The translations under genes were made by a program, and so were the position numbers. The notes below the pieces were generated by a model that was not told the origin of the DNA, made no database searches, and saw only the letters and a program-made list of their open reading frames with translations. DNA of 64,000 nucleotides from Chrysomallon squamiferum. Lineage: Eukaryota; Animalia; Mollusca. Below, one piece after another: positions 11,967-57,230 of this stretch (position 1 is its first letter; each line of letters opens with the position of its first letter). The stretch is taken from contig CM022673.1 of assembly GCA_012295275.1 (NCBI GenBank), positions 22,444,001 to 22,508,000 of the forward strand, in the 5' to 3' direction.

Positions 11967-12054
11967 ATGAAGGAAGAGGACAGATCAACTAATCTCCGTC
12001 ACACGAAAACCACGCCATTTTGTATTTACGTCATCGTGTTCTTTTCTCTGATTG
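11967..12054 (+). CDS. nAChR exon: N-terminus / signal peptide (MKEEDRSTNLRHTKTTPFCIYVIVFFSLI)
   Basis: Acceptor TTGCAG ends at 11941. Hydrophobic stretch, then phase-1 donor G|GTGAGT that joins 12513 in frame. Confidence 0.8.
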
Positions 12055-12458: not shown

Positions 12459-12821
12459 TTATCCCAGTTCATCCGCGCTATATGTTAAATAAATTAATTA
12501 ATCTCTATATAGCGGGTACCACAGCTGTTGACAACGATGCACAGTATCGGTTGGTCCGGGATCTTTTGAAACCATATGACAAAAGAGTCCGGCCAGCTCT
12601 AAACTTTTCCGAGTCTCTGAACGTCACATTCGGTGTAGCGTTAGCGCAAATTATTGACGTTGTGAGTATTTTCTATTTTATAAACATTGTTTGTCTGTTT
12701 TCCAAGTAACAAACACATGATATCATTTATTTCATTTTAATATATTTTATTTTAGTTCATTTCATTATTATGATCGATGATTATGAATTATTATTAATCA
12801 ATAAATTTTTAAATATATTGA

Positions 12822-14607: not shown

Positions 14608-17600
14608 GCAACAGCAACAACAAGAATAATAATTAATCAGTTAATTAATATTCATTAAGAATTTAAAGGTTTCTTGAAAATCTATAAAAGTTCTTAAAAA
14701 TAATGTTAGAATTTTAAATATATCACAAAGAATGCAGATAAAGTTCAAGAAAAATGCAGGATTTAAAGTTAGAATTTTATAAAAAAAAAAAAAAAAAAAA
14801 AAGAAAAGGAAAAAAACGTCCACTTCCTCCGAAAAGAAAAGGAAACTTTTAATAATTAAAACAACGCATTTATTCATTTATTTATTTACATACTTACTAA
14901 AAATAACCAGAAAAAAGTCTGTAATTTTGAGAAATATTTTCTAAATTTATTTTTTATATTTGTTTTTGTTTTCTATTTTCAGGATGAAAAAAATCAAATT
15001 ATTACAACCAACTGCTGGTTAAATCAAGTAAGTTTTCTTTTTCTTTAATTCTTAATTATATATTTTGTTATTTTAATAACAATAAGAACAATATTATTAT
15101 TACTGTATTGTTATTGATATCGTATATTTAATTACCTCTGTTACAATTGTTATTGTCACCAACGTGGATCTGAACACAGCATTCCAAACATTCATTACGG
15201 TTCATTTTATATCTGGTAGGATGTTAACTGTATAACAAGGCAATTCAGCGTAATGCATGGTTGCCAATGTTTCCTGTTTATCACACACGTAAAGCTTGAT
15301 AACGTGGTCTATAAAGATTTTCAAGTTTCCGAACACTGAATATCGTTACTTAATAGATATAAAAAATTAATAACTCACGAAGGATCAAAGAAAAACCAGT
15401 TGAACATTTACTGTAGAGAAATAACTTTATGTCATATTAAAGCAAACTTTAGAAAAATCAATGTTTCCCCCCCAAAAAAAAAATACTAGCCAAAGAGTTA
15501 TTTATTATCTTAGAAAACTGATTCAGTAAAACGAAATAGTATGTGGATATGTATGTATGTATATTTGTATGTATATATCTATATCAGTATCTATCTATCT
15601 ATCTGTGTGTGAATATGTTTGGGTGTGTATGTGTGCGTGTGTATGTGTTTATGTGTATTTATTATGTATGCATTTGTCCGGATGTGAATGGATTGATGGA
15701 TGGATGGATGGTTGCATGTTCGTAAGTATGAATGATTGACTGATTGATTGATTTCTTGCCATAGAATTCGGTTTTTAGTCATCAAAAGATATATATATTT
15801 GTCAATGTTTTCGCATGTGTAAGTTGTTTTTTCATGTAAGCATCTGTCAGTTTTTATAGATTCTCACACTTTCTTGAATTAATACATTATCACTTGTTAT
15901 CTGTTTATTATACGCAGGGTTGGATAGATCCGAAGTTGCGCTGGGAACCTAAGAAATACGGAAATATAACCGTAGTTAGAATACCGTTCAAGGAAATCTG
16001 GCTGCCCGATATTGTTCTTTACAATACGTAATATATTTTTATACATCCTTATTGCTTTATCAGCATTGACACTCATGATAAATAGATATATAGATAGATA
16101 AATAAACAAACAAACAAACAAAATAAATAAATAAACACTTATTTAAAATAAAATAAAATTATCGGTATCCCAACAAGATATAATTATCTATGAAAAATAT
16201 TATTTTGAACATAGTTCATTCATTTTTTATTCAGCTTTGGACGTCAGTAAAATAAAGCAACATTTTTCTTATACAAACTTACAATCCTTATTTGTGCGTG
16301 GACTGTCATTATACAATTGTTTTCACATGTCAACATCCAGTCATTCCATTGTGAATGACTGTCAGTATAAAACTCGTGCTTCACACGTTATAAATTTTTC
16401 TGTGAGCACGTATCAAGAAGTTGCTTTGTCTTTGCCAATAAGTTTGATATAAAATTATATAAAAGAGACGCTTCCAAAAATAAAATTGCTATGTATATTT
16501 GTAAGTGGAATGAAAGAAAAAAGATTTTAAAAAATAAAAGAAAGAAAAATGAAAAAGAATGCATGACTGATTGACTGATTGCCCGACTGATCAACTGACT
16601 GACTGACTGACTGACTGACTGATTGATTGATTTATTGATTGGTTGATTTCTCGTTATTACAGTGTCTAGCTTGTTATTTAGAATAATTTTACTTATGTTT
16701 AATTATATATGTCTGTATATTTGTAAGTGGAATGAAAGAAAAAAGATTTTAAAAAATAAAAGAAAGAAAAATGAAAAAGAATGCACGAGACAAAAAACCC
16801 CACATGTTAACAACACGATAAGAAGATAAATAAATAAATAAAAGACTACAAAAAAAAAATATATATATATAAATAAATAAATAATAATAATAATAAAATA
16901 AAATAAAAAGAAAAGTGAGAAAATATAGCTTAAGTTCAAAATATTTTAAATTTGTGTTGATTGGCGCTTGAAGTTATTTTGTGCATATTCCAAATATGGA
17001 AAATAAAGAACTATAAATACAGAGAAAATCCTTTATACTTTATGTAAGCTTTTTCACTGTCGTACAGAGCTGAAGTAACCAGCCCGGATTTCACCAGCGT
17101 CAGCACCAACGTAATCGTCACCCACGACGGCAATGTCACGTGGTTGTCCATGGTAATTTTCAAGAGTTCCTGTTCTATCGACGTTCAGTATTTCCCGTTT
17201 GATGAACAGAACTGTTCCATGTCATTCTCATCGTGGACGTACGACGCCTACCAAGTTAACATCCTCAACGTCGGCACTGAGGGCGACATCTCCAACTACA
17301 TGAACAGCACTGAGTGGAATTTGGTCAAATTTGTACAAGAGCGACAAGTAAATATATCTTGAACAATTTCTTTATATAACTATATTTATCTGCCTTCTCT
17401 GTGTCCCTTTCTGTCTGCTTTCTGTTTATCAGCCCTTATCAATATCTGCCTATTTGTCTGTCTGTCTGTCTATATAGCTTACCTGTTTTGTCTATTTACT
17501 ATCTCTATTTGGTGTTTTTTTTCTGACTGTCATTTTTCTTATGCCTATATTTCACCTGTCCCTTTCTTTCCGTGGCTATCAAACTCGTATATTGTTATTA

Positions 17601-20600
17601 TTACAATTATATTTTCCTTTTCATGTAACGTAAATTAAATTTTAAATTTTAATTTATTTTTTCAGATTTGCTATGAGCCGAGAAAAGAGTTATTCACGTG
17701 GTTTTCATTTTTATTATTATTTTAATTTCAATGTTGTTTTTTGGGGGGTTTTTTTCGTGTTTCGGGAAATGTTTAAACAGTACTAAACATTTCACAAAAT
17801 ACAGTTAGGATTGTGCTAGTGATCATATTCCTATACTAACTGTATAATTCAAATTTAACATGTTGCCGATCTCTAGCCAATGTCGCTAAAGCGCATACAA
17901 AGTAAATTATATATAAAATAATATTGAATTAGTAACTATATCGGACGGGATTTATTTCTGACATTATTATTATTATTTGTTTTTCATGTTAAATTTGAAA
18001 TAACAATAATAATAACAATACTACTACTAATAATAAAATATATACAGTGGGGTACCCTATAACGAATATAACCGGTTCCAGAACCTCGTTCGTTCTTTAT
18101 AGGGTCCAGTGAAATACATGTTATAACGGGTAATCGATCCTGACCCCCAAATACCCCCCTCTTAAAATACAATATAATATAATATAATACACTAGTAAAA
18201 TAAGTTTTTAAATGTACATTTAATCTCCAGAAATGAAGAGTATCATTAATACTGTATCTTACCTTGCTGTTGCTGAGCTTGCAGGAGAGGAGGCAGAAGA
18301 GGTGGGAGGAGATAATTTCTGAGAAGAGGTGACAGGAAAGGAGTGATCCTTAGAGCCCACTTTGGTGATTGTCCCAGTTCGTCCGTTGGAGGTTTTTTAC
18401 ATTAGGAATCCAGGGTTGACTGCTTCAACCTGGATTTCGGGATCTTTCAAAATTAGGCCGTCAGTTTCATAAAAAATATTAAAGCCCGTTTCTACAGCAC
18501 CATCATCAGGATGATATTCCTTAACAATTTTGAAAAGTTTATTCCAGCACCAGAACATATCTTTCAATTCTAGGGCTGGTATCACATGTCTTTGCTCCTT
18601 GTCCCCTACCTCCCCTGACTCCTCAGAAATATTCTTCTGTGCTCGTTATGGGAACCTTGTTTCGTTATGGAGATTCATAGGTAAAACGTTTCGTTATAAC
18701 GATATTCGTAGTACAATCCGTTCGTTATAGGGTACTCCACGTACAATAAATAAATATATTCTTGCAGTTAGTTTATGTGCATGATGGTATTTTCATTAAT
18801 ATCAAATTTATCTTTATTCCAGGTTTCTGAAAAGAGATTTTCCAATGAAGAAAAATTATATAATTTAGATCGTTTGATTTTTTGTTTCTTTGGTTGTTTC
18901 AAAAATTCAATATTATTATCGGCGAATGGGTGAATATGCTGATTATTTGGAGATTGTTAGCCTGAAGTATTTATATATTTATTATTATCAATTTATGACA
19001 GCAGTTTTCAGTATTATTGTATTTTAACAGTATTTATTGAATTTATTTATTTTACTTTATTTTATACTTCACCTTACGTTACTTTACTTTATTTTACTTT
19101 ACATTACTTTACGTAACTTTGTTGTATTTTACTTTATTTTATACTTCATCTTACGTTACATTACTTTATTTTACTTTACGTAACTTTATTGTATTATACT
19201 TTATTTTATACTTCATCTTACAATTACATTACTTTATATTACTTTACGTAACTTTATTGTATTATACTTTATTTTATACTTCATCTTTCAATTACATTAC
19301 TTTATGTTACTTTACGTTATGTTACTTTATTATTCTTTATTTTATTCTACTTGTTTTATGGTGTTTTATATTATTTTGCTTTTGCATTACTGTATTTAGT
19401 TTTTATATATTTTTTATTAACTTTGTTGGTTTTTAATATTTCATTCACTGACAGTCTGTATTAGATTCTTGGCCAGATTATATATATATATATATATATA
19501 TACATTCTAAATTTTTATCAGTTAATTTGTAAAACATGAGGAGCGCTCTAAGAAAAAAATTCTGTGTTAAAAAAAAAAAATCTTTTTTTTTTTTTTTTTT
19601 ATTGTTGTTATTAAAGATAAATAAATAAATAAATATATTTGTTAAAATAAAGACGGAATATGGTACTATTATTATTATTATTTCTATTAGACATTGTTTT
19701 AAGAAAAAATTCCTTGCCTATATTAAATTTTGTTTTGAAAGATAATAAACACAATAATAATAAAAAATAAATAAATAAACAAACAAAATAAACCAAAGAA
19801 TTGCAAATTTAATAAAATCAAAACATTTTTAACTGGAGATCAAAATGATGTTAAAGTTAAATTATAGCTTTAAGAAAAGCAATAAATTCTCTGTTTTAAT
19901 TGCAGGTTGTAGTTTTCAGCTGTTGTCCAGAACCTTACATCTTCATAACTTACTACATCGCCATCAAGCGAAGACCTTTGTTTTATTTATTTAACATGGT
20001 TATGCCCTGTATCCTTATCTCCATGGTCGCTCTCCTCGGATTCTACATGCCCTCTGACTCTGGGGAGAAAATATCCATGGGAATCACCACACTATTGTCC
20101 ATGACCGTCTTTCTAATGATGGTGGTCGAGCAGATGCCACCATCCTCGGATGATCTTCCGATCGTCGGTATGTCCGTCCATATATCCAGCATGGCGTACG
20201 AGGCACGACTGCTGTTATAGCCACCTGGTTGCTCGTGTTTTGCTTTTTATGCATTTAGTAAAATTTTATTTGTTTATATATTTATATACTGTTTTCCGTC
20301 TTTCTTCGCCATTTCAAAAACATTGTACATCAAAACTAAATATATTTTGTTAGTATTATAAAGCGAATCAGAATATGAAAATAAAATTATAAAATTATAA
20401 ATTAATTACATTTTATACCAAATTGAATAAACTATGCCGCAACATAAAATAAATAAATAAATATATAAAAATTAAAACAAAAATATTTTTATATCTTTAT
20501 AACAAATTTAATTACATTCATGCCGTTATAAAAGCTCAATACTCCTAAGCAAGATATATCACTTTGATGTGCAATGTACACCAAAGCTTCATTACACTGT

Positions 20601-23298
20601 ATATTTACTCCAATAACCAGACAAACATTCGAAGAAACAAGAATGGAAAACATAATAGCATCGTGTTAACTAAAGAAACTAAGCCAATAATGCCCATCTT
20701 TGTTTGTTAGGTTGTAATATTCAGCTGCTGTCCTCAGCCTTACATCTTCATCAACTACTACATCCTCATCAAGAGGCGTCCTCTCTTCTACATGTTTAAT
20801 CTCGTCGTGCCTTGTCTGTTGATCAGTCTGGTTTCTCTTCTCGGATTCTACATGCCTTCTGACTCGGGCGAGAAAATATCCATGGGAATCACTACTCTGT
20901 TGTCCTTGACCGTCTTCCTTATGATAGTTGCTGACATGCTCCCGCCTACGTCTGACGTCTTGCCGCTTATTGGTGGGTACCTATATACTGACCTGCCTAA
21001 AGATGTAATTTCCAACAGAAATATATTCCTCTTAAAACATTAAGTACTAGCTTGTAGATGACGACTGACAAAATAAACTCTTTTGATAGAACTCAATCTT
21101 TTATAAGGTTTGAATTTTAACAAAGATATTTTCTATGTTAATAATCATAATGATGCAAATGTGTCATCTAACAAAGGCAAAAAATAAACTGCTGATCATT
21201 TTCGTGATCTTTTAATTTTTTGATTTAAATTTTCCTTTCTCAAAAAAAAAAAAAAAATGGTTAAGAATATTAAGATTGTTGCTGATCTCTCTTGTTGGTC
21301 TTATTACAATGTGAAGACTTAGACTTTCTAATATAATGACAGTTAGCTAACACAACATAACCATAGTGTATAAAACTTTTGATTTAACACGAAAAATGTG
21401 CAAATCGTTATCATCCTAATAGTGGTCCTGTCAAACAAAGATTTCATATTCTACACCAATTCGGTCAAATAGATTTTTTAAAGTTCAGGATGTCAATTTG
21501 AAGAGAAACAAGACTAATGTTCAGATAATTGTGGTATTCCGAAAGTAAGCTTTCGAACACAGAGTTTTACATATATGTAAATTTGCACTACTGCAATTGT
21601 ACTACAAGTTATTCTACTGTCCATGTGTTAATATAATGAGGTAGAGCTTTCACTCACTTTCTGTAAACTCGTGGAAAAACCTATTCTGCAGTTTTAAGTT
21701 GCTAAGCAGAACCTTTACAACATAATTTACTGCTTTATCGCACTGTCACTATATTTTCCTCAAACATAATGATTATCTCTTCTCGATCATGTGGCGTATT
21801 CATAGTTCAAAATCCTTGTCATCTACATGTTAGTTTGAAAAATAATCTGACGTACAAAGCATGAAACATTGTTTTCTATTACTTGCTTTCTCGTTCTGTA
21901 ATACACAGCACTTTATAATTCCTATAGAGAACATCGTAAAATGTTTGATATTTGAAATTAGAATAAAAAATGTCGGTTAGATTGATTTTTTTTTTTTTTG
22001 ATTTTTTTATTTGGCTGTGAGCTTTTCGTTTTTAACATTTGTTGTGGCATTTAGCTAATAATATGTAAAACTTTCTGTGATAGCTGCATGTAAGTAGATT
22101 GAGTTTTATTAACAAAGACCTACCATTACCGTAGATTTTCCCTTCGGTGTTAAATCAAATCCTAATAAGAATCTTACAGATTTTTTTCAAAATATTAACA
22201 CATGTATTTAAAATTTCACGCTCTTATATTAGATATTTTATCGAATAAATAATTTGTTAACTTTTAACTCGCCCACTTAGTCACTTGTATCATTCGATAC
22301 AGCGGAAGTAAAACAAAGTACTAGACGATAACTAAATAATTATTCATTGATATTTATATCAGAATTCTTTCATAAACTACTGTGATTTTACAGAATTTAG
22401 TATGTCGACAAATAGCTTTTTAAATCTAACGTGAATTATATCATATATTAATGTTACGAAGCTCAAAATTGATGAGTGCTATTTTACAGGGTTGTACTAT
22501 GGAATAACCATTGTCGTGGTGTCCTCGGCGACAGCGATGACGGTGCTAACACTGAACATACACCATAAAGGACAACGCGGACAGGAGATACCTAGTATTG
22601 TGAGGACTATATTTTTCGATGTGGTTGCAAAAATCCTTTTCATTAAAGTTGATTCTAAGGCCGAGGCCCCGGAACGAGGAATGGTAAGATCATTTTACCG
22701 AAGAATTCTTCAGATTTTTGTTTTATTCGTTTATTTTGTTTCATTTTTCATAATCATTTAAACTGCACATTTTATTACAGCTCATAAACCTATTACTGCA
22801 AATTAATTTTATATTACCCTTTCAACTGTTCTTCAGTCTTAATTTTGTATTATTATTACTTATTTTCAGATTTAACTGTTTTTAAAAGACTTTACATATA
22901 CAAACATTAATTAAGAAAAAGTATGTTTATTGTTACAGCAACCCATCCCTCAGACTGACTACTACATGAAATATGAAAGTGAGAAATTAACAGAAAATGG
23001 CGGCTTATCTCCTCGATTCACCAGAAAAGTTCCTACTGCAAGCGGGACACCCTCTCACACTGACAACACGGAGAGACAGTTCATGCGCGTGTTACAGAAA
23101 GTTTATCAGACAATTGAGAAAAACGAAATGCGTCTGGCGGACCAGGATCGTAGAGACCACATCAAGTATGAATGGCAGCAGCTCGCCCTTATTCTCGACC
23201 GGGTTCTTCTAATTGTGTTTTTGATGGTTACTACCTGCGTGACACTCGGCATCTTTCTTCCGTCTCCGCATTCCACAGCATTCGGGGCAAGTTACTAA
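11967..23298 (+). CDS. Nicotinic acetylcholine receptor alpha subunit (Cys-loop cation channel, alpha7/alpha9-like), about 495 aa, with a mutually exclusive duplicated exon
   Basis: Exons bounded by AG/GT with matching phases: 11967-12054, 12513-12661, 14983-15027, 15918-16027, 17068-17347, [19906-20167 OR 20711-20972], 22490-22683, 22939-23298, totalling 1488 nt. Motifs: signal peptide, DEKNQIITTNCWL (loop D), IWLPDIVLYN (loop A), Cys-loop CSIDVQYFPFDEQNC, SWTYD (loop B), vicinal CC in loop C, GEKIS before TM2, and TM4 after EWQQLALILDR. Confidence 0.95.
12513..12661 (+). CDS. nAChR exon: start of ligand-binding domain (AQYRLVRDLLKPYDKRVRP...AQIIDV)
   Basis: Typical nAChR N-terminal helix and YDxxxRP motif. 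AG at 12511-12512; GTGAGT at 12662. Confidence 0.92.
14983..15027 (+). CDS. nAChR 45-nt exon (DEKNQIITTNCWLNQ, loop D)
   Basis: Characteristic 45-nt nAChR exon with a polypyrimidine-CAG acceptor and a GTAAGT donor. Not in the ORF track. Confidence 0.93.
15918..16027 (+). CDS. nAChR 110-nt exon (GWIDPKLRWEP...IWLPDIVLYN, loop A)
   Basis: Translated by hand. CAG acceptor, GTAATA donor, phase 0 to 2. Confidence 0.93.
16492..16785 (+). repeat. 72-bp direct duplication (16492-16563 and 16714-16785) in an nAChR intron
   Basis: TGTATATTTGTAAGTGGAATGAAAG...AAAAGAATGCA appears twice, identical by eye. Confidence 0.9.
17068..17347 (+). CDS. nAChR exon carrying the Cys-loop and loop B
   Basis: SSCSIDVQYFPFDEQNCSMSFSSWTYD...EWNLV; phase 2 to 0. 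Confidence 0.95.
18045..18741 (-). mobile_element. Non-autonomous Tigger/pogo-type (Tc1-mariner superfamily) DNA transposon in an nAChR intron
   Basis: TIRs CAGTGGGGTACCCTATAACGAA ... TTCGTTATAGGGTACTCCAC-G with flanking TA and internal TTCGTTAT sub-repeats. The minus-strand remnant LKDMFWCWNKLFKIVKEYHPD resembles Tigger transposase C-termini (from recall). Confidence 0.8.
19050..19350 (+). repeat. Degenerate tandem minisatellite (about 60-70-bp units built from TTTTA/TTACG pentamers)
   Basis: Recurrent TTTATTTTATACTTCATCTTAC...TTACTTTACGTAACTTT. Confidence 0.75.
19906..20167 (+). CDS. nAChR alternative exon A (loop C, TM1, TM2, M2-M3 loop)
   Basis: 262 nt, TGCAG acceptor, GTATGT donor. Encodes VVVFSCCPEPY...GEKISMGITTLLSMTVFLMMVVEQMPPSSDDLPIV. 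Confidence 0.93.
20711..20972 (+). CDS. nAChR alternative exon B, paralogue of exon A
   Basis: 262 nt, TTAG acceptor, GTGGGT donor. Encodes VVIFSCCPQPY...GEKISMGITTLLSLTVFLMIVADMLPPTSDVLPLI, open throughout. Confidence 0.92.
22490..22683 (+). CDS. nAChR exon: TM3 and start of intracellular loop
   Basis: GLYYGITIVVVSSATAMTVLTLNIHH; its phase-1 start fits either exon A or exon B. Confidence 0.93.
22939..23298 (+). CDS. nAChR terminal exon: MA helix, TM4 and stop
   Basis: EWQQLALILDRVLLIVFLMVTTCVTLGIF followed by TAA. Confidence 0.92.
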   Translation, partial: QPIPQTDYYMKYESEKLTENGGLSPRFTRKVPTASGTPSHTDNTERQFMRVLQKVYQTIEKNEMRLADQDRRDHIKYEWQQLALILDRVLLIVFLMVTTCVTLGIFLPSPHSTAFGASY

Positions 23299-28406: not shown

Positions 28407-28539
28407 GGCAGTAGTAGTAACAGAAGTAAAATTTATTGTCTGCGTATTATTAATGTGCTAGAGTTCAAATCTTATCTGTCATATTTTGTTTTCATGCTGT
28501 GGGTAAATGTTAGAGTTACTGCCCTTTATTTTGAACATT

Positions 28540-31500
28540 ATGGCACTTGGAATAACTCGACGTGGTATTATAACTTTTGGAATTGGTCTGTTGTTTGGTT
28601 TTGCTGTAACGTATATGCTTGCATTTACTCTGCGTTACAGAACTTCGCATGAAATTCTTTACTCAAGTGGTTTTATACCTAAAAGTCCGCACAGTCACGG
28701 AGAAATGGATCAGTTTCGAGGCCCGGACGTATCGGTCCAATGGGCAGACGAACATTCACATTTGCATGCAGGTGAAGTTGACGACACTGACACTGATTTT
28801 AATAAGGAGATTTTTACTATTTGATAGAAAAACATTATGAACTTACCTCATTAATGATACATATCATAAAACATTTCAAGTAAATTTCTTAAAGATAACA
28901 TGACATTGTCACTGACAATTAGATATGAATGTTTATATATGGCTTACTTTTAACAAATTTGCATACGTGTAAATTTTGACATTTTTGTTGAATACTAAAA
29001 ATAATAAATAAATACTAAAAAGACCAACAAAACAAATTTAAAAAAGTAACGTACAATTAAAACATTATTTATTCTGTGCATACAGTAAATTAACATGACA
29101 AAATACACTTGAAAAATTAACCATGAGGTTTATGCTATCAGTTCCATGTCCTTTTAAATAATAAAAACATTTAGTACTTGAAAGTTCCACGAGTAAAATG
29201 TCAAAGATATGTAACCAACAATATTTGTATTAATAATCACTTGAGCCTTACTCTGTTTACTATAACTAAGGTATAGTGTTTGTAATGGTTAGATATTTTA
29301 AAATAATATTCTTTTATTTAAAATAGAGGAGTCCAGTGAGGTTGCTGTTGAATTAGCTAAACGGGTTAGAGTTTTATGCTGGGTAATGACCAGTCCCAGT
29401 AATCATGAGTCAAAAGCAAAACACATCAAAGTGACATGGGGAAAACGATGTAACATCCTTATTTTCATGAGCTCTGAGGCTGATCCAAATCTTCCTGCTG
29501 TTAAACTACAGGTAATTTAATATTTAACATCAGAAAGTAATATGCTTTACACAATTTATTTAAAAGATATTACAACCAATATTATAATTCAATCAAAATT
29601 TCCCAGTTATTTCATTATTTTTTGTTTTAATTATAGGTTCTTAGAAAAATAACAGTGACAGTTGTAGTCAGGTGTTTGTGATTTGGTGTTACATACACAC
29701 TGATCCAAGTATTATTCGAATTGGTTGTTAAGACTCCTTAATATGAATGATTATAAAACCAGTTATCTTCAGTACTTTGAATTCTGTACATAATAACTAC
29801 ATGACATGTTCTAAAAACTTACAGTTGACAGATGATGACAGACATTATGTATGTTTTCTGAATGTTAATTACTTTGATATCAAAGCTTTTTGCTCATGTT
29901 TTGTTTTTAAAAATATTCTTGATGGAAATATATTATGTAATGAAATAATATTACATTATGTCGTTAGTTATATTTAAATTTAGAACAGCTGCTGAAAATA
30001 AATGACTGATGTATTCTTTCATGCACTGTTTTATGTCCCTGACTTTAACTTTCATCTCATTATAAAATCTGATAGCTCTGTAAAAATTGGCAGACCTGTA
30101 ATATATTTTAAAAATAAGACTAAATTTAAAAATAAAAAATTGTCATTTATACTTAAATATACTTTTATCATGAGCAGGGAAAAATTAAAATTAAGCAAAA
30201 CTTTAAAAATAATTTTAATTTGAAAACTACAAAGAACACAACAAACCAACTCTTTTTATTTCCACAATCATATTGCACAGTTGCCACCATGTCTCAGACT
30301 CCAGAAACAGTTAACACTTATGGTGAGACATACATAAAGGTGAAAAAGTGAGTAAACAAAATTGTTGAGCAAAATGTTCTTTGTTCTAGTGTTTGTTTGA
30401 GGGCAAAACATTATTGTCTCTCCTACTTAATCTTAATCAAAAACATTTTGAAAACACTATAAAAATCTTAGTTTCATATTTAACTATTCTGAAATATCTT
30501 CATTATATAGATGCATTTTTTAAATATTTATTTGAAATTTTGTTCAGGTCAGTGAAGGTCGAGATAATTTATGGGCAAAAACGAAAGCTGCTTTTAAATA
30601 CGTTTATAAACATCACTTTAAAGATGCTGATTGGTTTTTCAAAGCAGATGATGACACTTACACTATTGTTGAAAACATGAGGTACTTTTTAAGTGACAAG
30701 GATTCCAGATCTCCCATTTATTTTGGGAGAAGATTTAAACCCTATGTTACACAAGGATACATGAGTGGTGGTGCTGGCTATGTTTTGAGTCGTGAAGCTC
30801 TTGAACGTTTTATTACCAAAGCTGCTGATGATGATTCAAAATGTCGAGCAGACAATGGAGGAGCAGAAGACCTTGAAATGGGGAAATGTTTACAGAATGT
30901 TGGGGTAGTGGCAGGAGATTCACGAGATGAACTTGGCAGAGAACGCTTTCATCCTTTTGTTCCAGAACATCATCTCATTCCAGGCATCTTGCCAAAAGAT
31001 ATGTGGTACTTCAGTTACAATTTTTACCCTGCTAAACAGGTTTGAACATTTTTACTTTTTTATGCATTTATTTAAATAAATTTAAATGTAATTTTGTTAG
31101 GTTAAAATATATAAATTCAGGTTAGAATGTTTCTATAATTTAAAAAAAAATTACTTTAAACAAAATGTTGATATTTTTACCAGTTCAAAACAGCCGTGTA
31201 GGTGGATTTAGATCACATAAAATGTAGAAGAATTTGAAATAATTTTGTATTAAATGTTTTTTTATCTTTTATTCTGTCAAAAATGTAGGAAAATGTGACA
31301 TCTGTAAGTTCCAAATATTTAATGATATGGATTGAAAAACCAGTCAGATTAATTCTGAAAAGTAGATTATGACATTAATAATTAAGAAATATTTATAAGA
31401 AATACATGCTAATTCAAATTATTTTCTGTAAGTTGGCTTATTTATTTATTTTTGTTTATATATTTATTTTTAATTAATATTTAAAACAGAATGCAGCATG

Positions 31501-33166
31501 TAAATGTGCAGAATAAATTAAAAGTGAGTCTTGCTAAGTATGGCATCAATTTCATTTCAGAGCTTTTAATTACAGTTAGCTTTTTAATTTTAATTTTGAA
31601 ATGCTTAATTTTTTTCTTTAATTTTTTAATTTTTGTTACATTACTAAAGCAGGATTTAATTTTGCTCTTAAACATAAATTAATTGTTTGATAAAACCAAA
31701 TTAGCTGTATTTCCTTTCTTCTTCTTTTTTTTAAACTAATAAAAAAAGTTTAAAAAATAAAAAAGTAAATAGTTGACTGATAAGAATGTACTTTAAAAAT
31801 AAATCCTGCTTCAGTTTAAGCATTTATTTTCTAATGGTTTATTTTTGTTTGAATTATTATTATTGATTTTAATTTTTACAATTTGTTATGAATTTAGTTG
31901 CAGTATTTGTTGTTTTTCTTAAAATGAGTAATTAAAATGTTGATATGAACATTAATGTATATGTGCATTGTTAGCACTGTTTTAATAAAATTCAGTAGTA
32001 TATAAATACATTGCTGTTTCAAAAGCTCTTCTGATTATCTATAGAAATTTTTTTGCTTCTTAAGGGTATTTATCAACCTCAAATAGATGTTGGTTTGGTC
32101 TTAATGTGTTTCAATTTAGGTCTTTGTTTTATTTTTATTTTTATTTTTATTATCATGGTTTTATCAGTTCTGATTTAGATAAAAAATAAATATAATTATG
32201 TTGTTAATAAATATCTGTTTATTTGCTTTCACAAAGAATAAACATTACAGCTTAAAGAATAATATCTGAGTTAGGAGTTAATTTTAAAAATATACAGCCT
32301 TCTGAACCACAAATTTGTAGAATCATATAGAAATTAAACTGAATGTTTTACCACAAACTGAATATGGTTTAATCCTCAATTTTAAATTTCTAATCTTTTT
32401 TTTTTTATTTGTTGTTGGTGTTGTTGTTGAAACTAACAGTTTAAAGAAATAAATAAAAAATACTGGTATGTAATGTGTGATTTGGAATTTTTTTCAGACT
32501 ATTTAATTTTTAAATGTTATTACTTTTATACAGTAGGTTAAATATATATAAAAAAAGGAAAGTTTTACTAAAATTTTCTTTGATTTGTATTTGAATAAAT
32601 ATGTTTATTGATACAAGGTTTAATTTCAGGGTCCAGAATGTTGTAGTGATTATGCCATAACATTCCACTATGTTGCTCCAAATCTTATGTATGTATTGGA
32701 CTACATGATATACCATCTTAAACCATACGGCATTCATGTAAAACAGGTCAGTTTTCTTGTTGTTGTTGTTGTTGTTCTTCTTCTTGTTCTTCTTCTTCTT
32801 ATTAATATTATTATTATTATTATGATATTGTTGCTATTATTGTTTGTTTTGAAACAAATATTCAGTTGGCATTAGTTGAGATATTTTAAATTTTCTGGTA
32901 TAAGAGCATTTTAGGTTGTTCTTGTGTTGTTGTTGTTGGGGTTTTTTTTAATTTTTTTTATTAATTACTATAGAATTGTGACATATTTACACATTTACTT
33001 TCAGCAATGTCCTAGCACAAAATATAAAAAAATCACAGAAGTTAATCAAGAAACAAAAGTTGTCAAAGTGGTAGAAGAAAAGGAGAAACACCTAATTGAA
33101 AGTAATACAATTACTGAAACAAATCAAAATGAGAAGAAACAAAGTACACAAACTCAGAAAAGTTAA
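28540..33166 (+). CDS. C1GALT1: Glycoprotein-N-acetylgalactosamine 3-beta-galactosyltransferase 1 (core 1 T-synthase, GT31), about 395 aa
   Basis: Exons 28540-28771, 29327-29511, 30548-31039, 32630-32746, 33005-33166 (1188 nt, phases consistent). N-terminal TM anchor; motifs [36 protein letters not shown] (DxD), [34 protein letters not shown]. Confidence 0.95.
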
Positions 33167-37427: not shown

Positions 37428-38487
37428 TCACAGACAAAGTAAATGTAAGCTGTAAAGCAAGTTCCACTTCCCGTTCCTCTTCAATTCGTCTTCGTGCTGT
37501 CTGCGAGCACAGTAGATTCTGAACTTCTCTTTTTCGATACCTACAAGTTTCTGCCACTGCTGACGGTTCCTTTTGCACCCATCGTACATGGGTTTCAGAC
37601 GGGTATCATATTTGGTGAAGAGTGAATAAAGTGGTAGACATACAGCATCGAAGAAACCAACCTGCAACTGTGGCATTTCGTCTTTCTTCGTTCTATCCAT
37701 TAGGGCTATAGGTTTTAGTCCCAGCTGACTCAATTCTAGGTCGCCTTGCTCGTAAAACTCCTTGGACACCAACATTGCCGTCCTGAAAGTGACTTTCCAA
37801 GATTTGCACATACCTGCTAGATCACATGCTGTCATCATCATTGCTTTCAAAAGATTCTTTGCCCTCAATTCCATGAAATTGGTGTTAGTGTTTAGCAACT
37901 CTGGAAAAGACGAAGATGGAAAAAAAAAAAAATGGAGAATTGTGACGAAGATATATTTGGTTCAGAGGTTTTACGATTAATATTCACAGCAATAAAATAT
38001 TAAGACAGTTCTAACCAAACCTATCCTGTTAGTTTTGTTGTATCCCTTCGGAACTTAAAAAGGTATGTGATGCTTTTATTATTTATGGTCAACTTTCATT
38101 ACACTACACTGCATCTTTTTAAAAAAAAATCACCTAGCCTCCTAGATGCCTTCCCGGTTTTTGACCAAGCAGTACAGTTCCAATGAGTTCTTCAATTTTT
38201 GGAAAGCAGGATGCGTTTACGTCATTGAATTCCAGGTACCCATTAAGTTAGCAGGTTATAGGCATCCTAAAATGAAAATAAACTGATTTTAATTCTTGAA
38301 AGCTTTTTATGCTTTCTTGAATTCGTGTTTATTGCCTACGTAATATGAATCCAAAACACAGAGCGCGATAGTTTATTAAAGTTTTTAATTTTTAATTATT
38401 GAGAAAGAGAGGTGAATATGCAGTATATTTAACCATTTAAGGTTGAAATATATATATATATATATTTACACACACATACAAACATAC

Positions 38488-38556
<69 letters not shown>

Positions 38557-38590
38557 AACACACATATATATGTATGTATGTATGTGTATA

Positions 38591-38647
<57 letters not shown>

Positions 38648-39235
38648 TTCGACTTTAAACACATTTACAGTATTAAGAAAACGAGAAAATCCAAATATTA
38701 TACGGACTGGACTGGACATTTAAATTTAAGATATTATTCTCTCTTGCGCCAAGGTTGAATCTTTCATTAATATTTATTTTGCCTTCATTTATTTTGTACT
38801 TTTTACTGTCCTTTAGAAACTTTCTTTTTTTTTTTTTCTTTTTTTTCAGGAAATTTTGTAAGTCTCTAAAACATATTTATTGATATAATAAAATATAACG
38901 TGAAACGTCTTGCTGCTAACGGTTTTAGCAGCTGTTATCTGAGTCGTTCTCTCTAACACATTCAAATATTACATAAATTATTCTTTAAGAAACATTTGGT
39001 TATATTCTATTTTACTTATTGCTGTTATTAATTATATTAACTGAATAGTGCATTAAATTTAAAATCAGTTTATTTTCTTGTACTGAAAACCTTAGTACAC
39101 GTAGGTCTTCTGGATTAACATAATAGGTGGAATGAGTATATATTCATTTTATTCAATTTATTTAAGTATATACTCAAAACATACAGCTGACGAATCCCCG
39201 TTACTGTCTTGTTAGTCTATTTCTACTTTTCAAGA

Positions 39236-39309
<74 letters not shown>

Positions 39310-41360
39310 GTTTTTGTGTGCCAAGTGTTACCTTCGAAATCTTTCCTCTTTTGAAAGTACATGGCAAGATCCGTGGCCAGAATTGTGTGTTCAATATAGC
39401 CCAGCGCAGTCCTATATTCTTCCGAACTGAGGGAGGAAAATATATTATTTCCTAAACTGTTGAGAATCATCACGCACTGGTCAAAATGATGATGTTCTAA
39501 TACTGACGTAGTGTACAAATTTGACAGGGAGGATTCAATTTCAATCTGAAAAGCATTGTTTGTTCCTCTGTGGTCAAGATCGTGGCATAGACAAGCAACG
39601 ATTAAGCAGAACATCTCGAGATCATCAAACAACTTGTTAAGACCGCCAGTGTAAAGCATGGCGAAGCAAGCCTGGCTCACGTTGAACGCATGCCGCCAAT
39701 TGTGATAGGCTACTGGACGGTAGTTTTTTTTCACACTCATTATCCACCGACATAGAACTTCGTAAGGTATGGTGAATATCTCAAGGATGTCCATTTCCAG
39801 AAACATTCTAATGGTGACCTTGGCTAGCATGAAATCGTCTAGCAGCAAATCATCGAAATCAAATGAGTAGATTGCCAACTCTTTTGATTTCGGAATCTCT
39901 GCATTGAGTAGGCTTTCCGTTTCCTCCGGCTGTGCTGTAGCATGATATGAGAGCGCATCAAAGGCAAGCTTTTGCATAGCCGTCAACCTGCAGACATGCT
40001 GATACAAAGCACAGTACTGAAGTCCAAGGCCGATATAGACCGAAAATGCTTCCATTATATTTTCATCGCGAGTATCAAAGTCCATTTCTGAAATTTTGTT
40101 CAGCTGTTGTGTGACGCCCATTACATGACCTCTACTATCGAAAATAGGCATGCACAGAACATTCTTTGCTAAAAATTCTTGACTACCATCTATATCAATT
40201 CCTCTATCACAGTCCAGTTCAGTACATGATATATTGACGATCTCCTTTGAAACAACCACTTCTTTTGCCACTCTCATACAAGGACATTGCGATAGATCAG
40301 TGGAACTCAAAGACTTCACTTCGTAAGATGTATTTACATGACAAAGAACAAAAATACGTGAGAACAGTACTTCCTCGACATCATGATATTCCTTCATACT
40401 TTCAAATTCTCCGAAAAATTCGCTTCCTTCGAATGTCTCTTCGAAATGCTCCGTCAAATAGACTTTCAATCTCTCGCACAGTGTTATCTTTGGAACGTCC
40501 ATCATGATTTTCTTTACCAGCTCTTCTTTGTCTCTCTGCTCAGTAAAAATATTTCGAGCCAAGTTTAAAAGTAAATTCTTTCGCTGGTTTTCCCTAACTG
40601 ACATGTCAAAAAGCAGAGCATTTTTCAGTTCTATACCACAGAATATCAAGTAGCGACTAAAAAGGGCTTCATCTCGTTCATCGAACTCGTGCGGTGGTCC
40701 GGAGTGCTTGTTAATAATCTGAGCTACGCCAATACACTCGCCAGTGTAATCCAAAATAGGCATGCAAAGAATACTGTGTGTACGATATCCCGTTTTGTTG
40801 TCCATATCTTTACAAAATCTCGAATCGTCATATGCTTCCGAAATGTTGATAGTTGTTTTGTTTGCAGCTACGGTTCCAGCTATTCCAGTTCCAAAAGGAA
40901 CTTTTACTCCACTTTCTTCTGTAGTGAGAGATTCTTCGAAAGTTGAAGTTCGAGTAACATTCAGTTTTAAATAGAGGTATTTCTCTTCGTTTGTACCTCT
41001 CGTCAGAAAAAGACTACTCCGGTCACTGTCGGTAAGAATACTCACATTATGCAACAGTTTATAGCAAACCACGTCGAAATCAAGATCACTTCCTAGATCT
41101 TTTACTAGCTCGACAAACATATCAGTCTCATTCATTTGTTGAACCTTTTGTTTAGTTACTTTCCAGTTTCCTTCCAGGTGTTCAGAATGACACGAAAATA
41201 GGTCTTCGTGTATTTTGTGGACTCCTAACTGCCGAATCCTTTTCTCTGATAAATGGTCCAAATAATGAGCGACAAAATCTGTATCATTGTCAAGCCATTC
41301 TACTATGTCTTCATCGTCGAAATCTGATTCTTCAACATCATTTGAGGTTTCCTTCAACAT
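37428..41360 (-). CDS. GAF-GAF class I cyclic-nucleotide phosphodiesterase (PDE5/6/11-like), copy A, about 833 aa, 2 exons
   Basis: Exon 1 is 41360-39332 (donor G|GTAACA); exon 2 is 37900-37428 (TTTTCCAG acceptor). Two GAF domains (NK...FD..DE), [41 protein letters not shown], and the invariant Gln in LQVGFFD. Confidence 0.93.
38447..38647. repeat. Compound (TA)n/(TACA)n/(TGTA)n microsatellite with rough inverted symmetry in the PDE-A intron
   Basis: Read directly; TACA runs on the left mirror TGTA runs on the right. Confidence 0.9.
39239..39305. repeat. (CT)n microsatellite just inside the PDE-A intron
   Basis: Read directly; it explains the ERERER tail of the 719-aa ORF. Confidence 0.95.
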
Positions 41361-41687
41361 TTTAACGTAATACTTTCGTGCTTTTTAAAAAATGTATTTA
41401 TTTATTTTTTATCGTGAACCGGCTAAATTTTACTGTAATATATTTTGTTTATCTTATTTCCTTTATTTCCCCAGGCTATCGAGTTTATATTTACAGCATC
41501 TGTTATTTCGTTCATCTGAATTTTATTTTTACCGAGCAAATTATCATTTGACTAAGCACAGCATCGTCCTTATGGCTAAATTATAATTACAAAATAATAT
41601 TTGAAAAATTACATACAATAAGTCCTAAATTATTTAAACTGATTACAATACTACCATATACAAATCATAAATGCAACTGAAAATACG

Positions 41688-41717
41688 TGACGTCAACGTA
41701 AAAAGTGCCTGACGTAA
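41688..41717. promoter_or_regulatory. Paired CRE sites (TGACGTCA + TGACGTAA) upstream of PDE copy A
   Basis: Full CRE palindrome at 41688-41695 and a variant at 41710-41717, about 330 bp 5' of the ATG. Confidence 0.55.
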
Positions 41718-42132
41718 AGAAAATAAAAATGTGTAAACTACAAATTACATCCAAACATACCTTTGTTAATAATAATTAAGTGAAAGTAATTGTTAAATTT
41801 TTCACTTATAAAATTTTATAAAACCGACTTCTGATTCACCACTATCTTCTATCTGTAAGGACATTTCTCATGTTACAATTTCGGAATGAAAGCTGCAAAT
41901 TCGATCTTGGATGCTGTTAAAGATTACGGCTAACGACCTTATATGAACTAAAATGTTTTAATACTTAATAATAAAATGTTAAAATTGGCGGATAAATATT
42001 AGAGTTTTATCTTTTTGGCACCAACAGACGTCTACCCTGAGCCCTTGTTAAACCGCAGCTCTGCAGTAATAATAAGTATTGATATGACTCATTAGTGCCA
42101 AAATGTTCTAACCCATGTCAATCATTTAACTA

Positions 42133-42184
<52 letters not shown>

Positions 42185-42443
42185 CAACCTAAATACAAAG
42201 AAAAAATGAATCCATAGGATATAAAGATATATATATTTCATCAATATTTGTACCACCAGTCTTAAATGGTGAATATTTTATAATTTCTTTTTAGACATAA
42301 CACAAAATAAATATTATACAGGATATTCAAAAAGAATGACATTAATTGTATTATGTCCTTTTTGTGCTCTTATTGTTTCATTTCACTTTTAAATTTTGAT
42401 TCCAAACACTTTCAAGGATTAAATGTAAATCAAGTGATAAAAT

Positions 42444-43127
42444 TTAGGGCGGGTGAGTTGGTGAAGAATTATCCGTTGACGATGAAGTCAAAGGCGTCGT
42501 GACATGAGACGAAGTCGTGCCATGAGACGAAGTCGTCAGTTGACTCATAGGGGACGAACCCAACGGCGTCAACCGGGGCGGCTCTTCGAGTTCAAAAACC
42601 TTGGCATTCTCAATGTCTGCTAACGTCTTCCATTCCATGCCGTTGTTTTTGCAACCAGTGAGCAGTGGTTCAAGCCGAGGCTCGAACTTAGCAAAGCATT
42701 CGTACAACGGCATGCAGACAATATCAAAAAAACCCATTTGCAGCTTAGGAAGTTCGTTCCTCTTATTGCGATCCATCATCACTGTTGGGTCCACACCGAG
42801 TTTCGTTCGCTCAAGATCGCCCTGCTCAAAGAATTCACTAGCCACGAGCTTGGCCGTTCTGAACTGGACTTTCCAAGGCTTGTATGTAGCGGAGAGGTCG
42901 CAAGCTGTCATTATCATGGACGTCAAAAGGTCTTTTCTAGCTGGAGTATTAAATTTTCTATCCGATTCCTTACAGGCTTCTACACAAATAATAAACAGAT
43001 TTTATCAGCTTATTCTGAAGAATTTTTAATTTATTACTTAATTAATTATTTTATTTTATTTTATTTTATTTCATTTCATTATAATAATAATAATAATATG
43101 AAGAAAAAAAAAAACACACACACACAA

Positions 43128-43174
<47 letters not shown>

Positions 43175-45291
43175 TAAAAAATAATCTGTTATAAAGACTA
43201 ATTAATTAAAAACAAAAAATATGCACCTATAAACTCAGCCTTCTTGGAGAAATAGACAACAAGGTCTGTAGATAAAATGGCATGTTCAATGCAGATTAGA
43301 GCCTTTCGATAGTCTTTTGAAGTAAGGCAGCCAAATATATTGTTGCCTTCACTGTTCAGTATCATTATGCACTGGTTAAAATGATGATGTTCCATTACAG
43401 ATGTGCTGTATAGAGTAGCAAGAGGAGACTCCACTTTCACCTGGTATGCATTATTTGTCCCTCTGTGGTCAAGATCATGGCAGAGGCATGCAACAACTAA
43501 GGAGAATATTTCCAGATCATTATACATTCTGTCCATTTTCCCAGTGTAGAGCATTGAGAACATACTCTGACACACGTTGAACGCATGGCGCCAGTTGTGA
43601 TATATTACAGGTCGATAGTTCTTTTTAACACTGAGGACCCATCGACACATAACCTCATAAGGAACTTTGAATTTCTTTAAAATGCCGGCATCTATAATCA
43701 TTCGAATACTTGCCTTGGCTAACTCAAAATCGTCCATGTTGATGTCGTCCATTTCAAATGAATACAATTGCCAATGTTGTGCTTTGGGAATATCTGATTT
43801 GACCAGAGCCGCCGTTTCATCTGGTTGTGCTGTGGCATGATACGAAAGAACTTCAAGAGAAACTTTTTGTTTTGCCATCAATTTACAGACGTGTTCGTAC
43901 ATTGTGCAGTTATGAATTCCAAGACCAGTGAAAATTGAAAAGGCCTCGATAAGTTTTTCGTCACTTTTATCGAAAAAATCCTTACCAATTTTATTCTTCT
44001 GTTGCGTGACACCTATAATTTGCCCCTTGCTATTAAATATTGGCATTGTCAAAACACATTTCATTTTCAACTCATTCTCATCCATACTGGCTGTACCATA
44101 CCTAGACCTCACTTCAAGTCCAGTCAGGTTTATGGCTTTTTTGGAAACAACTACATCTTTCGCTACTTTCGCGCTCATAGACTGTGTTAGGGCCGAACCG
44201 ATCAATGTTGTAATGGTGTTACCCTCTTTGATGTTTATGTCGTAGGCAGTGGAAAATACAACCTCTTTGTCAGACTTATAGTCTTTGATTTTAATATTTT
44301 CATTATCCGCATTGCTTTCAAGCGACTCGGCAAAGTTTTGTAACAGATATACTCTAGATCTTTCGCAATTTGATATCTTTTGAACATCTATCATAATCTT
44401 CTCAATCAGTTTAGATAGATTCGTTTGCTCAGTGAAAATGTTCCGAGCTAAATTCAGCAGTATTTGATTCCGACGAAATTCATTGACGGACATTTCGAAC
44501 AACTGTGCATTTGTTAGTCCAATTCCGCAGAACATTAAGTAGCGTTCGAAAAGATCGATGTCTTTTTGGGTGAATGCTGTAGAATCATCGCATTTGTTCA
44601 TTATATTGGCGACAGCAATACATTCACCATCCTTATCCAAAATAGGCATACACAGCAGATTCTGAGTATGGTAACCAGTTTTTAGATCTATTTCTTTGTT
44701 GAATCTAGAGTCCTTGTAGGCGTCTGGTACATTAATATATTTCTTTGTTTCAGCAACCGTTCCTATTATCCCTTTTCCAAAAGGTATTCGAATTTCGTTT
44801 TTTTCAGTGGAAAGATTTTCTTCTAATGAAGTTGTTCTCGAGACATCAAACAACTTTGAAACTAAATACTTGTTTTGGCCTGAACCTCTGACTAAAAACA
44901 GACTACAGCGGTCACTTTTAGTAAGAATACAAACATTACGTAAAATTTTGTGACATAATATATCCACGTGCAGTTCTGCTGCAATATCTTTAACTAGGCC
45001 CATAAATAATTCAGTTTCGTCTGTTTCCATCAAGATATGTGAAGGAACTGGGCTCAATTCTCTCTGCTGGTTGACAACTCTTTCCAACAGAGCTCCGCTG
45101 GTTGAAAGACTAAGCGAAAGCCGTGCTCTTTCGTATCGTGCAACACCGAGTTGGTCTAACAGTTCCCGCGAAGCAGTTCTGAGGTAACTGGCCAAAAAAT
45201 CTGGGTGATTATCCAACCATTTTTTCTTCTGAGATTCATTCATTGACTTCATCGCCTTATTTATCCACATCTTCAATAACAGTTCTTTCAT
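42444..45291 (-). CDS. GAF-GAF class I cyclic-nucleotide phosphodiesterase (PDE5/6/11-like), copy B, about 850-866 aa, 2 exons
   Basis: Exon 1 ends at 43227 (G|GTGCAT); exon 2 is 42979-42444. The start ATG is uncertain (45291, 45270, 45252 or 45243). N-terminal WLDNHPDF motif, SKLFDV in [39 protein letters not shown]. Confidence 0.93.
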
Positions 45292-45323
45292 TGCAATTAA
45301 AAAGAAAATTAAGAAACAAAATG

Positions 45324-45347
45324 TGACGTCATAGTAATATGACGTAC
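45324..45347. promoter_or_regulatory. Paired CRE sites (TGACGTCA + TGACGTAC) upstream of PDE copy B
   Basis: Full palindrome at 45324-45331 and a variant at 45340-45347, immediately 5' of the candidate ATGs. Confidence 0.55.
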
Positions 45348-47633
45348 AAAAATCGGTTTTGGCGAACATAAATGATAATGTTATCCCAAGGTAAGTCAAA
45401 TCTAGAAAATTATGGTTGAAAAAAAAAAAAAAAAAAAAAATATATAAAAAGTCTTCTTAGCTTACATCAAAAATCTAGAATCAGAGCCACGGTTTACATT
45501 ACATATCTATTTTGTTATCTTCCGGTGAATCTTTTCTTTTATAAAAGTTTATGTCCACATTTAGTTAACACACAGTGACACAACATCGTGCAGTAATATG
45601 TATCACACCACCACGGATATCGGTTATGTCCGAACAAATTTAGTGATACATTCTTTTACTAATGCATACAATTTTAATTATGGAAATTGAAGACACTACG
45701 CATCTATACCCGCTAAATAAAATATACCTTAATTCATAAGCAGCTAGGTTTCATTTGATTTTATTGTTTTTTCAGTATGATAACATCAGAGATGACAGTG
45801 GTTAAGCTTGTGCATTTAAGATGTAATACTAAATGTTAACTGAATATTTAGAAATACATTATATATCTATTTATCTTCAGTGTCACTTATTAGCAATTAA
45901 GCTTATTTTTGATATTCATAATGATGTTCTTTTAATGAATATATTTTTACTTTCATATATTTTAAAAATGCTAAGGTACTGCTTTTCCTTGGGATTGAAA
46001 AAAGAAGAATTTAAAAACAAATACTGTTGTGATCATCACGGTCTTTGTATCCAGTTTTCTTCAAAGATAATACAACAGCAATAATAAAATGAAAAGGCCA
46101 AGAAGAAAAAGAAAATGAATATTTATTTATAAAAAGTGTATTTATAAAAAAATTAAAAGAAAGACAAAAATATGTTTAATGACATCCCAGCATGTATCAC
46201 ATTGCCTTTAGGTGGAAGTTACAGCTTGCAGTTGAATAAATTATTTGTGCAGACATCATTAAACACATTTTGTAGGTATGGTTAGAGTTCTACAAATATC
46301 AAAAAGTAAAACATTTATAGATGTTTTGCTTACCCACATAGATATTTACTTACGTAAAGTACTGGCATTTTGACTGAATTGCAACAGTATGCATTGCATG
46401 ATTGGAATGTTGCAGTAGTTGCTGTTTATATGTACCAAAATGGAGATGTAATACAGAAATGAATAAATGTTCTATGTAAATCTTTGTATGTCTCAATTTG
46501 GAAAACAGTTTGTTAACAATCATAAAATTACATGAAAAAATGTGGTCATAGTCATAAAAATTAAGGTTGTGAGAAATACGGAAAGGCTCATTTTTATTTC
46601 ATTTTATTAAAATAAAATCTAAGTAAAGACTGCATTATTTCTGATTTTATACAAACAGATGTTAGCATATCTATAACAAAACTTATTTATCAGTGATGCA
46701 ATTGAAACTGATATACATGCATATTTTTTTTTGTTGAAACATTAGCTTACATCTAAGACCTTTTTCTGTTAACTGTTACAGGAAATCTTAAGGGAATGAT
46801 CACAAGAGATATTTCATTAATAACAGAAGCAGTAAAATGAACACCAGACTGCAAAAATAATTATGAAAATTACACTAACTTAATAATTTATTTAAATAAA
46901 TGTTAGCATCATTTTAAAAAGATCTTTTCCAGCCTTGGTAAATATATTTTCAATAAACTGACACTTTATGGGTCAATGGGTTGACTTGGTACTACAAATA
47001 TTTATTTTCCTGGTACATTTGAAAATCTGTTGAGGAATGGCCACCTCTTCTTACTGTGTAAGAGTTTTGTGTAATGAAAAACAAAGAGGTTTGTACTTGT
47101 AGCCACTTTTACAACACAGTTCACCAAAATCTACTTTGTTAACTGTGTACCTAGTTCTGGATGGCACTGTCAGAAATCTCACATAAGTAAGCTGGTATTT
47201 TCACTCCTGTTACATTTAAAAGTTCTGACATTTTTAACTGAATTTTTGTTTGTCAGTCATACATGTGTTTATTTTCTTGTACAGAAGACTGAATCTTATA
47301 TTCATTTTGCCTTTGTTTTTGTTTTTTTTGTCTATAAAACTGAATCTATATTTCCTTGTTACTGAAATAATCTTCAGCAAACTGTGTATCAGTCATGTTA
47401 TTTTCACAAACCAGGAATCAATATTTTTAAGGAAATTCCTGTAATGGACAGTTACAAAGAATGAAGGATGTATTGACGTGTTCTATTTTACTGACTGCAT
47501 CATAACTATCTGATCTGACTATTTCTTTGGCCTTTTTTGTTGTTGTTGTAATACAAATAATTATATTTTAAAAATAAATAGTTATTTTATATTTGCTTTT
47601 ATATATGTATGTATGTATGTATATGTATGTATG

Positions 47634-56886: not shown

Positions 56887-56940
<54 letters not shown>

Positions 56941-57199
56941 TTGCTGATTTCCTGAATTTTCGGGATTTATGGAAGCTGGATAAATGGTGTAAATTAAAAT
57001 ATTTTCTTTTTTTAAGAGAGATGTAATTTTTTTTGACTGAAAAATCTCACCTCTACAGTTATAGGTGTCAACAATTTCATGAAACATGTAAAAGTTTGAT
57101 TCTGCAACTAAAGATAATTCGTGAAAAAGCATAGCCTGGGTATCTCCTCGCCATCTGCGAAAACCCTAAATGATAAATAAATAATAATTAAAATATGTC

Positions 57200-57230
<31 letters not shown>

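Follow-up and report, generated by a model that had tools for sequence, protein, structure and literature searches.

The closest described system is exon 8a/b/c of the insect alpha6 nicotinic acetylcholine receptor (nAChR) gene. This gene has mutually exclusive exons 3a/b and 8a/b/c, which arose by duplication more than about 300 million years ago (PMC1919356), and exon 8 changes the second transmembrane segment, TM2 (PMC2064938). Further insect cases are exon 4/4' of alpha4, exons 3 and 6 of RDL and exon 3 of GluCl (PMC2064938), and a review notes, citing Copley 2004, that tandem exon duplication recurs in ion channels (PMC3342872). For molluscs, a survey of nAChR diversity stresses retroposition and gene duplication, and the string 'splic' occurs once in it, in a reference (PMC6896357); both 'splic' and 'isoform' are absent from the 2026 MolluscaGenes preprint (PMC13174522). 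No description of the snail exon pair presented below was found in the open-access literature searched.

The window, that is, the whole 64,000-nt stretch of DNA analysed here, carries on its plus strand an nAChR alpha gene in which one exon is present in two adjacent versions, A and B. The coding exons are as follows, with matches given as identical residues relative to the orthologue of the vent snail Gigantopelta aegis unless another sequence is named:

11967..12054, plus strand: candidate first coding exon (signal peptide) with putative boundaries; the G. aegis N-terminus matches weakly at 12006-12053 (E=0.009), start placed from the ORF translation
12513..12661, plus strand: exon for the N-terminal helix of the extracellular domain; AG/GT, 149 nt; 44/48
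14983..15027, plus strand: 45-nt exon, loop D region; AG/GTAAGT
15918..16027, plus strand: exon, loop A region; AG/GT, 110 nt; 34/35
17068..17347, plus strand: exon for the Cys-loop and loop B, whose phase-0 end is the upstream donor of the cassette; PF02931; 87/93
19906..20167, plus strand: alternative exon A, encoding loop C, beta10, M1, M2 and the M2-M3 loop; 82/87 to G. aegis X1 (XP_041365680.1) and 77/87 to the genomic fragment P0243
20711..20972, plus strand: alternative exon B, with the same span as exon A; 83/87 to G. aegis X2 (XP_041365681.1-684.1)
22490..22683, plus strand: exon for M3 and the start of the intracellular loop, the common downstream acceptor; AG/GT, 194 nt; 56/64
22939..23298, plus strand: last coding exon, M4 and stop; 105/117

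From 12513-12661 through 22939-23298, each exon of the model is preceded by AG and all except the last are followed by GT.

The G. aegis protein 'ligand-gated ion channel 4-like' is the orthologue of this gene: 428-429 of 465 residues (92%) are identical between the window protein and the matching isoform, which marks the window species as closely related to G. aegis but distinct from it. The best full match to exon B is the G. aegis protein 'isoform X2' (95%), whose cluster also holds an isoform X1 of equal length. PF02931 and PF02932 score above cut-off in the orthologue and in the window exons, and among PDB entries alpha7 matches best (E about 1e-26). The gene thus has the ligand-binding domain and the four-helix transmembrane domain of an nAChR alpha subunit, including the vicinal cysteines of loop C, which occur as FSCC in both A and B. 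The GEK motif before M2, whose -1' glutamate is a sequence mark of cation selectivity, is found in all four exons of the window and G. aegis. The canonical YxCC tyrosine of loop C is absent: FxCC is found in both exons (19915-19926 and 20720-20731) and in 27/27 comparison sequences. As FxCC is common to the whole clade, it is not an A/B difference. In alpha7, a Tyr-to-Phe change in loop C is reported to make acetylcholine affinity fall tenfold (PMC2064938); to judge from FxCC, the whole molluscan clade may have a lower acetylcholine affinity or another agonist.

A quick full-length tree of 44 rows, built without bootstrap, places the gene in a pan-molluscan group of 31 rows (SH-aLRT 99), with the window and G. 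aegis sequences together (99) and Haliotis adjoining them (93). Because vertebrate alpha9/10 sequences are not among its rows, the alpha9/10 label used here follows database names (alpha-10-like or lgc-4-like). Other genes lie in the same window. Two tandem GAF and phosphodiesterase genes (37431-45456, minus strand, Pfam) have unusually long exons, with open frames of 727 and 752 aa. A Fringe-like/galactosyltransferase gene (28507-33163, plus strand) is presumably similar to core 1 beta-1,3-galactosyltransferase. A multi-exon gene at about 48400-57300 on the minus strand has what we take, by the look of the translations, to be apextrin-, CUB-, kringle-, C-type lectin- and ShK-like domains.

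Exon A and exon B each measure 262 nt, are preceded by AG and followed by GT (donor GTATGT in A, GTGGGT in B), run from phase 0 to phase 1, and have 67/87 residues and 192/262 nt in common. An earlier note on this DNA, which had reported two intact exons with these positions, splice sites, phases and residue identity, was accurate in each respect. Adjacent, homologous and equal in length and phase, the two are tandem exons, and they align to residues 187-270 of the alpha7 nAChR, which comprise loop C, M1, M2 and the end of the M2-M3 loop. The duplicated stretch consists of the exon and ~15 nt, the flanking introns having only AT-rich matches in common. A tblastx comparison of seven exon stretches with the window (the 45-nt exon 3 and the candidate first exon lay outside this set) gave a second copy for A/B only, which agrees with the earlier description of the other exons as single-copy. 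Codon by codon, 38 of the 87 are the same in both copies, 29 show synonymous and 20 non-synonymous differences (dN 0.17, dS 1.36). The resulting dN/dS of about 0.125 places both copies, judged by their codons, under purifying selection, and the decaying copy that had been considered in the earlier note was not found. The intron 5' of exon A also contains an AT-rich degenerate tandem repeat (19012-19435) with a 68-nt unit made of 5-nt subunits.

The reading frame allows exactly one of the two exons in a productive mRNA, as previously proposed. With A alone or B alone, the frame stays open for 465 residues to the natural stop. Inclusion of both leads to a premature stop within B, 367 nt upstream of the last junction, and omission of both leads to a premature stop in the next exon, 176 nt upstream of that junction. 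Under the usual 50-55-nt rule, both of these forms would be targets of nonsense-mediated decay. A single copy thus gives the full frame and the other two combinations do not, which is the behaviour of tandem mutually exclusive exons.

The same pair is present in G. aegis. Its X1 and X2 proteins are automated RefSeq models, annotated as isoforms of one gene; RefSeq alternative models generally rest on transcript evidence. Both proteins are 497 aa long. Their 17 differences fall within residues 226-310, and the exon itself corresponds to residues 224-310. X1 is the counterpart of A and X2 that of B (82/87 and 83/87, respectively), and the remainder of the protein is identical at 346/378 residues between the species. 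The annotation of both versions as isoforms in this second species supports the claim of a mutually exclusive tandem cassette kept by selection. An assembly chimera of two paralogues, the artefact that the earlier note had envisaged, is excluded because the same exon pair occurs there. The exon pair is a genuine, conserved feature that RefSeq already contains implicitly.

An exon-only tree (31 rows) pairs window A with the A version of G. aegis (100/98) and window B with its B version (99/94), and a clade of window A and window B is rejected (p-AU 0.0005). This topology, obtained from the exon sequences, establishes that the duplication is older than the split of the window species from G. aegis. 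As a yardstick only, the estimated split between the two sequenced peltospirid snails dates to ~66 million years ago (PMC7736800). Relative to Haliotis, an A+B clade set against the other molluscs is neither shown nor rejected by this 87-column tree (p-AU 0.138). A short-fragment search added P0243, a genomic fragment that starts at the exon start and runs into intron at the exon end. It matches window A at 77/87 and G. aegis A at 78/87 residues and has 12/13 of the A-diagnostic residues and 0/13 of those of B; by these residues, an A-type exon is present in a third genome. The grouping of A with A and B with B across species, together with this third exon, indicates that the pair is old and conserved. 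Among 336 proteins scored, none apart from P0243 and the two G. aegis isoforms exceeded 8/13 for the A or the B type. The 30 protein clusters covered were compared in selected pairs, each cluster showing part of its members, and a second version of the cassette exon was not found in the Haliotis or Patella isoform pairs.

Over the window species and G. aegis, the A/B differences comprise 13 fixed positions, two that differ in both species with other residues, five specific to the window and two specific to G. aegis. The fixed set consists of one V/I before loop C, five positions within M1 or at its start, and seven in 19'-32'. The 19'-32' block has 7/13 of the fixed differences and 23% of the orthologue variability (P about 0.0015), and the first 27 residues (loop C and beta10), the most variable part among orthologues, have 1/13 and half of the variability among the 27 comparison sequences (P about 0.001); the null is weighted by orthologue variability, and both P values are indicative only, as the segments were picked post hoc and the 27 sequences are related and include some within-species paralogues. 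The A/B residue differences listed in the earlier note are correct for the window species, and several end there. The loop C E/Q and the 11' M/L are found in the window species only: G. aegis has CCPEPY in both isoforms and M at 11' in both. The 17' M/I is absent from G. aegis, which has I in both isoforms, and P0243 has M like window A.

All four exons have the same residues at positions -2', -1', 0', 2', 6', 9', 13' and 16' and an acidic residue at 20', so both isoforms should be cation channels with the same gate. Most of the fixed changes are conservative, and many are present in single-version orthologues (20' is E in 14/27 and D in 13/27; 22' is L in 6/27). Three residues were seen in none of the 27 comparison sequences: V at 19' and I at 31' of A, and S at exon position 42 of B. 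The fixed M/L difference at 22' is the alpha7 change M260L. In alpha7, M260L alters allosteric activation and leaves acetylcholine desensitisation unchanged (PMC4548482), and it turns some type II modulators into agonists (PMC4548482, PMC5767682). Such behaviour favours a slight change in the energetics of gating or in allosteric sensitivity, not a new pharmacology, and, since acetylcholine desensitisation is unaffected in alpha7, the A/B effect may be small. Synonymous differences between A and B amount to 8/23 near the 5' end vs 21/41 elsewhere; partial gene conversion at the 5' end could be an alternative cause of the likeness near loop C.

We consider it probable, on this comparative evidence, that A and B are an old tandem duplicate in an alpha9/10-like nAChR gene, likely spliced either-or, which keep the same binding loops, selectivity filter and gate and are predicted to differ in gating or allosteric tuning via M1 and the M2-M3 region. 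The cell would select A or B; exclusivity at the protein level would follow from the frame, and nonsense-mediated decay would clear transcripts with both or neither. Both isoforms would be cation channels with like agonist recognition and would differ modestly in opening efficacy, in lipid or ligand modulation, or in assembly. The M2-M3 loop couples binding to opening, and different gating of the isoforms is plausible. Splicing might equally be either-or between channels that are functionally near-equivalent, the pair being kept by its use in particular cells or stages, or because the frameshifting forms with both or neither throttle expression. Such equivalence would suit the mainly conservative nature of the changes, which stay inside the orthologue range, the identity of the pore-facing residues and the unaltered acetylcholine desensitisation of alpha7 M260L; against it are the 13 fixed differences, with their clustering in the gating region, and the three residues unseen among the 27 comparison sequences, and we regard it as unlikely.

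The coupling mechanism of the earlier note, in which the cassette swaps the agonist-binding loop C together with the pore so that both ligand binding and gating differ between the isoforms, is supported in part. The exon does reach from loop C to the M2-M3 loop, and its conserved changes affect M1, upper M2 and the M2-M3 loop, a region also swapped by insect alpha6 exon 8 (PMC2064938). Placing the weight on loop C is not supported: the E/Q of the window species has no parallel in G. aegis, whose loop C cores are identical in both isoforms, the region is depleted of fixed differences, and its single fixed V/I, just before loop C, lies at a position with 13 different residues among 27 orthologues. 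A joint swap of binding and gating is accordingly a poor candidate, with a small chance of being correct. Least credible of all is that one copy is silent or decaying or that the pair is an assembly or annotation artefact. The weaker donor of exon B (GTGGGT) would fit a silent copy, but both copies are 94-95% conserved in a second species, where they are modelled as isoforms of one gene, and their dN/dS is low; moreover, one public run of unstated kind, which may be the source, contains 96% of the sampled words of the window. RNA runs were absent from the runs listed as containing the window, which weighs neither way.

How exclusion would be imposed during splicing was also considered. Steric exclusion received no support, the intron between A and B being 543 nt long and its closest branch-like motif lying 235 nt away from the A donor, and neither did U12 incompatibility, both donors being GT and U2-type. 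For competing RNA pairing, one of 12 long-range duplex scans scored better than each of 20 shuffles, but the margin of 0.4 kcal is unconvincing after 12 tests; local RNA folds gave z from -1.5 to +0.7, none significant, and the inverted repeats are mostly AT-rich. One candidate element adjoins exon A:

20168..20227, plus strand: GC-rich stretch directly 3' of the A donor, candidate splicing-control element; 53% GC; folding z -0.3 to -1.5, not significant

Its GC content is attained by 2/149 intronic 60-nt windows, itself counted. Elsewhere in the gene family, isoforms that differ in length by one residue, Q, at the start of the last exon occur in Patella (P0019/P0128), Bradybaena (P0034/P0190) and another gastropod (P0024/P0193), which suggests a conserved tandem acceptor.

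Genomic fragments bear on the origin of the cassette. In abalone-, bivalve- and cephalopod-type genomic ORFs, as well as in locus L001, the coding sequence is unbroken from the Cys-loop exon to the end of the M2-M3 loop. L001 is one of two loci to which 595 pattern matches were reduced in a metagenome scan of 38/64 parts; it has one long exon of bivalve type, a second copy being absent from its 5,976 nt, and the other, L002, is a distant relative. Caenogastropod-type fragments (P0143, P0244, P0245, P0246 and members) have a boundary before loop C as in the window. On the simplest reading of these fragments, an intron appeared before loop C during gastropod evolution and defined a 262-nt unit that was duplicated later in the Gigantopelta lineage. 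The proposed order would be an ancestral long exon from the Cys-loop to the M2-M3 loop, gain of the intron, formation of the unit and its duplication. As the caenogastropod-type intron is at the same spot, the unit is likely older than its duplication.

Partial duplication had been entertained as the source of the upstream intron, given the abalone, bivalve and cephalopod fragments without it, and was set aside since single-version caenogastropod-type fragments have the same boundary. The position of the intron (17348-19905), shared with caenogastropod-type and absent from abalone-, bivalve- and cephalopod-type sequences, is a possible character for deep gastropod phylogeny. Two whole-gene receptor copies each are found in Nucella (P0007/P0013), Babylonia (P0142/P0349) and Bradybaena (P0034/P0041); the Gigantopelta lineage duplicated one exon instead.

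The M3 exon of this gene is varied in another gastropod. RefSeq isoforms X1 and X2 of the Biomphalaria glabrata orthologue (P0037, P0145, P0038 set) differ at 24 positions, all in the exon equivalent to window 22490-22683, and a B. pfeifferi model has both M3-exon versions in tandem, so that this gene has another either-or exon, independent of the first. A broader proposal, which we advance tentatively and consider somewhat doubtful, is that vent snails possess a one-exon switch that would hold the agonist site and selectivity filter constant, swap M1, upper M2 and the M2-M3 loop and give two gating modes, the Biomphalaria M3 exon having been gained independently. If true, the gene would be a hot spot of convergent splice tuning of nicotinic gating and a natural two-state experiment on binding-to-gating coupling.

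A direct counterpart of the cassette is the G. aegis X1/X2 pair itself, from an orthologous gene with the same two exon versions, although it belongs to another species, its protein is 92% identical and five of the window A/B differences are missing from it. A further parallel is found in alpha7/acr-16-like models of the barnacle Amphibalanus amphitrite (XP_043210121-125; P0001, P0225-P0228), in which the loop C-M1 unit is doubled and followed by three alternative M2 units, together covering the span of the snail cassette. Unlike the snail gene, the barnacle gene belongs to a different subfamily and has two adjacent duplicated units, and each of the five models links the two loop C units to one another in frame. 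The barnacle units are probably mutually exclusive exons that annotation has partly mis-joined; no description of them was found in the literature searched. The insect alpha4, RDL and GluCl cases use the same genomic device to change extracellular loops, whereas the snail cassette changes the transmembrane coupling region. As the device is well known and the isoforms are already in RefSeq, the surprise is less. The snail gene is valuable as a natural source of two subunits that are the same apart from ~13-15 long-conserved positions in the coupling region, and it would allow a clean test of what the M2-M3 loop and M1 contribute to the tuning of gating.

With insect alpha6 exon 8a/8b/8c the snail pair has in common tandem-duplicated either-or exons in a nicotinic alpha gene, placed in the TM2 region, old and conserved; effects on the channel have been proposed there (PMC1919356, PMC2064938). 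The snail gene is alpha9/10-like, not alpha6/7, and an independent origin is very likely. Its exon is longer, with 87 residues including loop C, beta10 and M1, and occurs in two copies, not three. The outer-ring acid is kept as E or D in both snail versions, whereas insect exon 8c replaces a conserved glutamate. Homology of the two systems is contradicted by the start of the cassette before loop C and by single-version orthologues across molluscs. By all appearances of sequence and gene structure, the snail cassette works like alpha6 exon 8 and is not homologous to it, being in another subfamily, longer and lineage-limited. The convergent exon-duplication pattern of insect nAChRs is thereby extended to a molluscan alpha9/10-like subunit.
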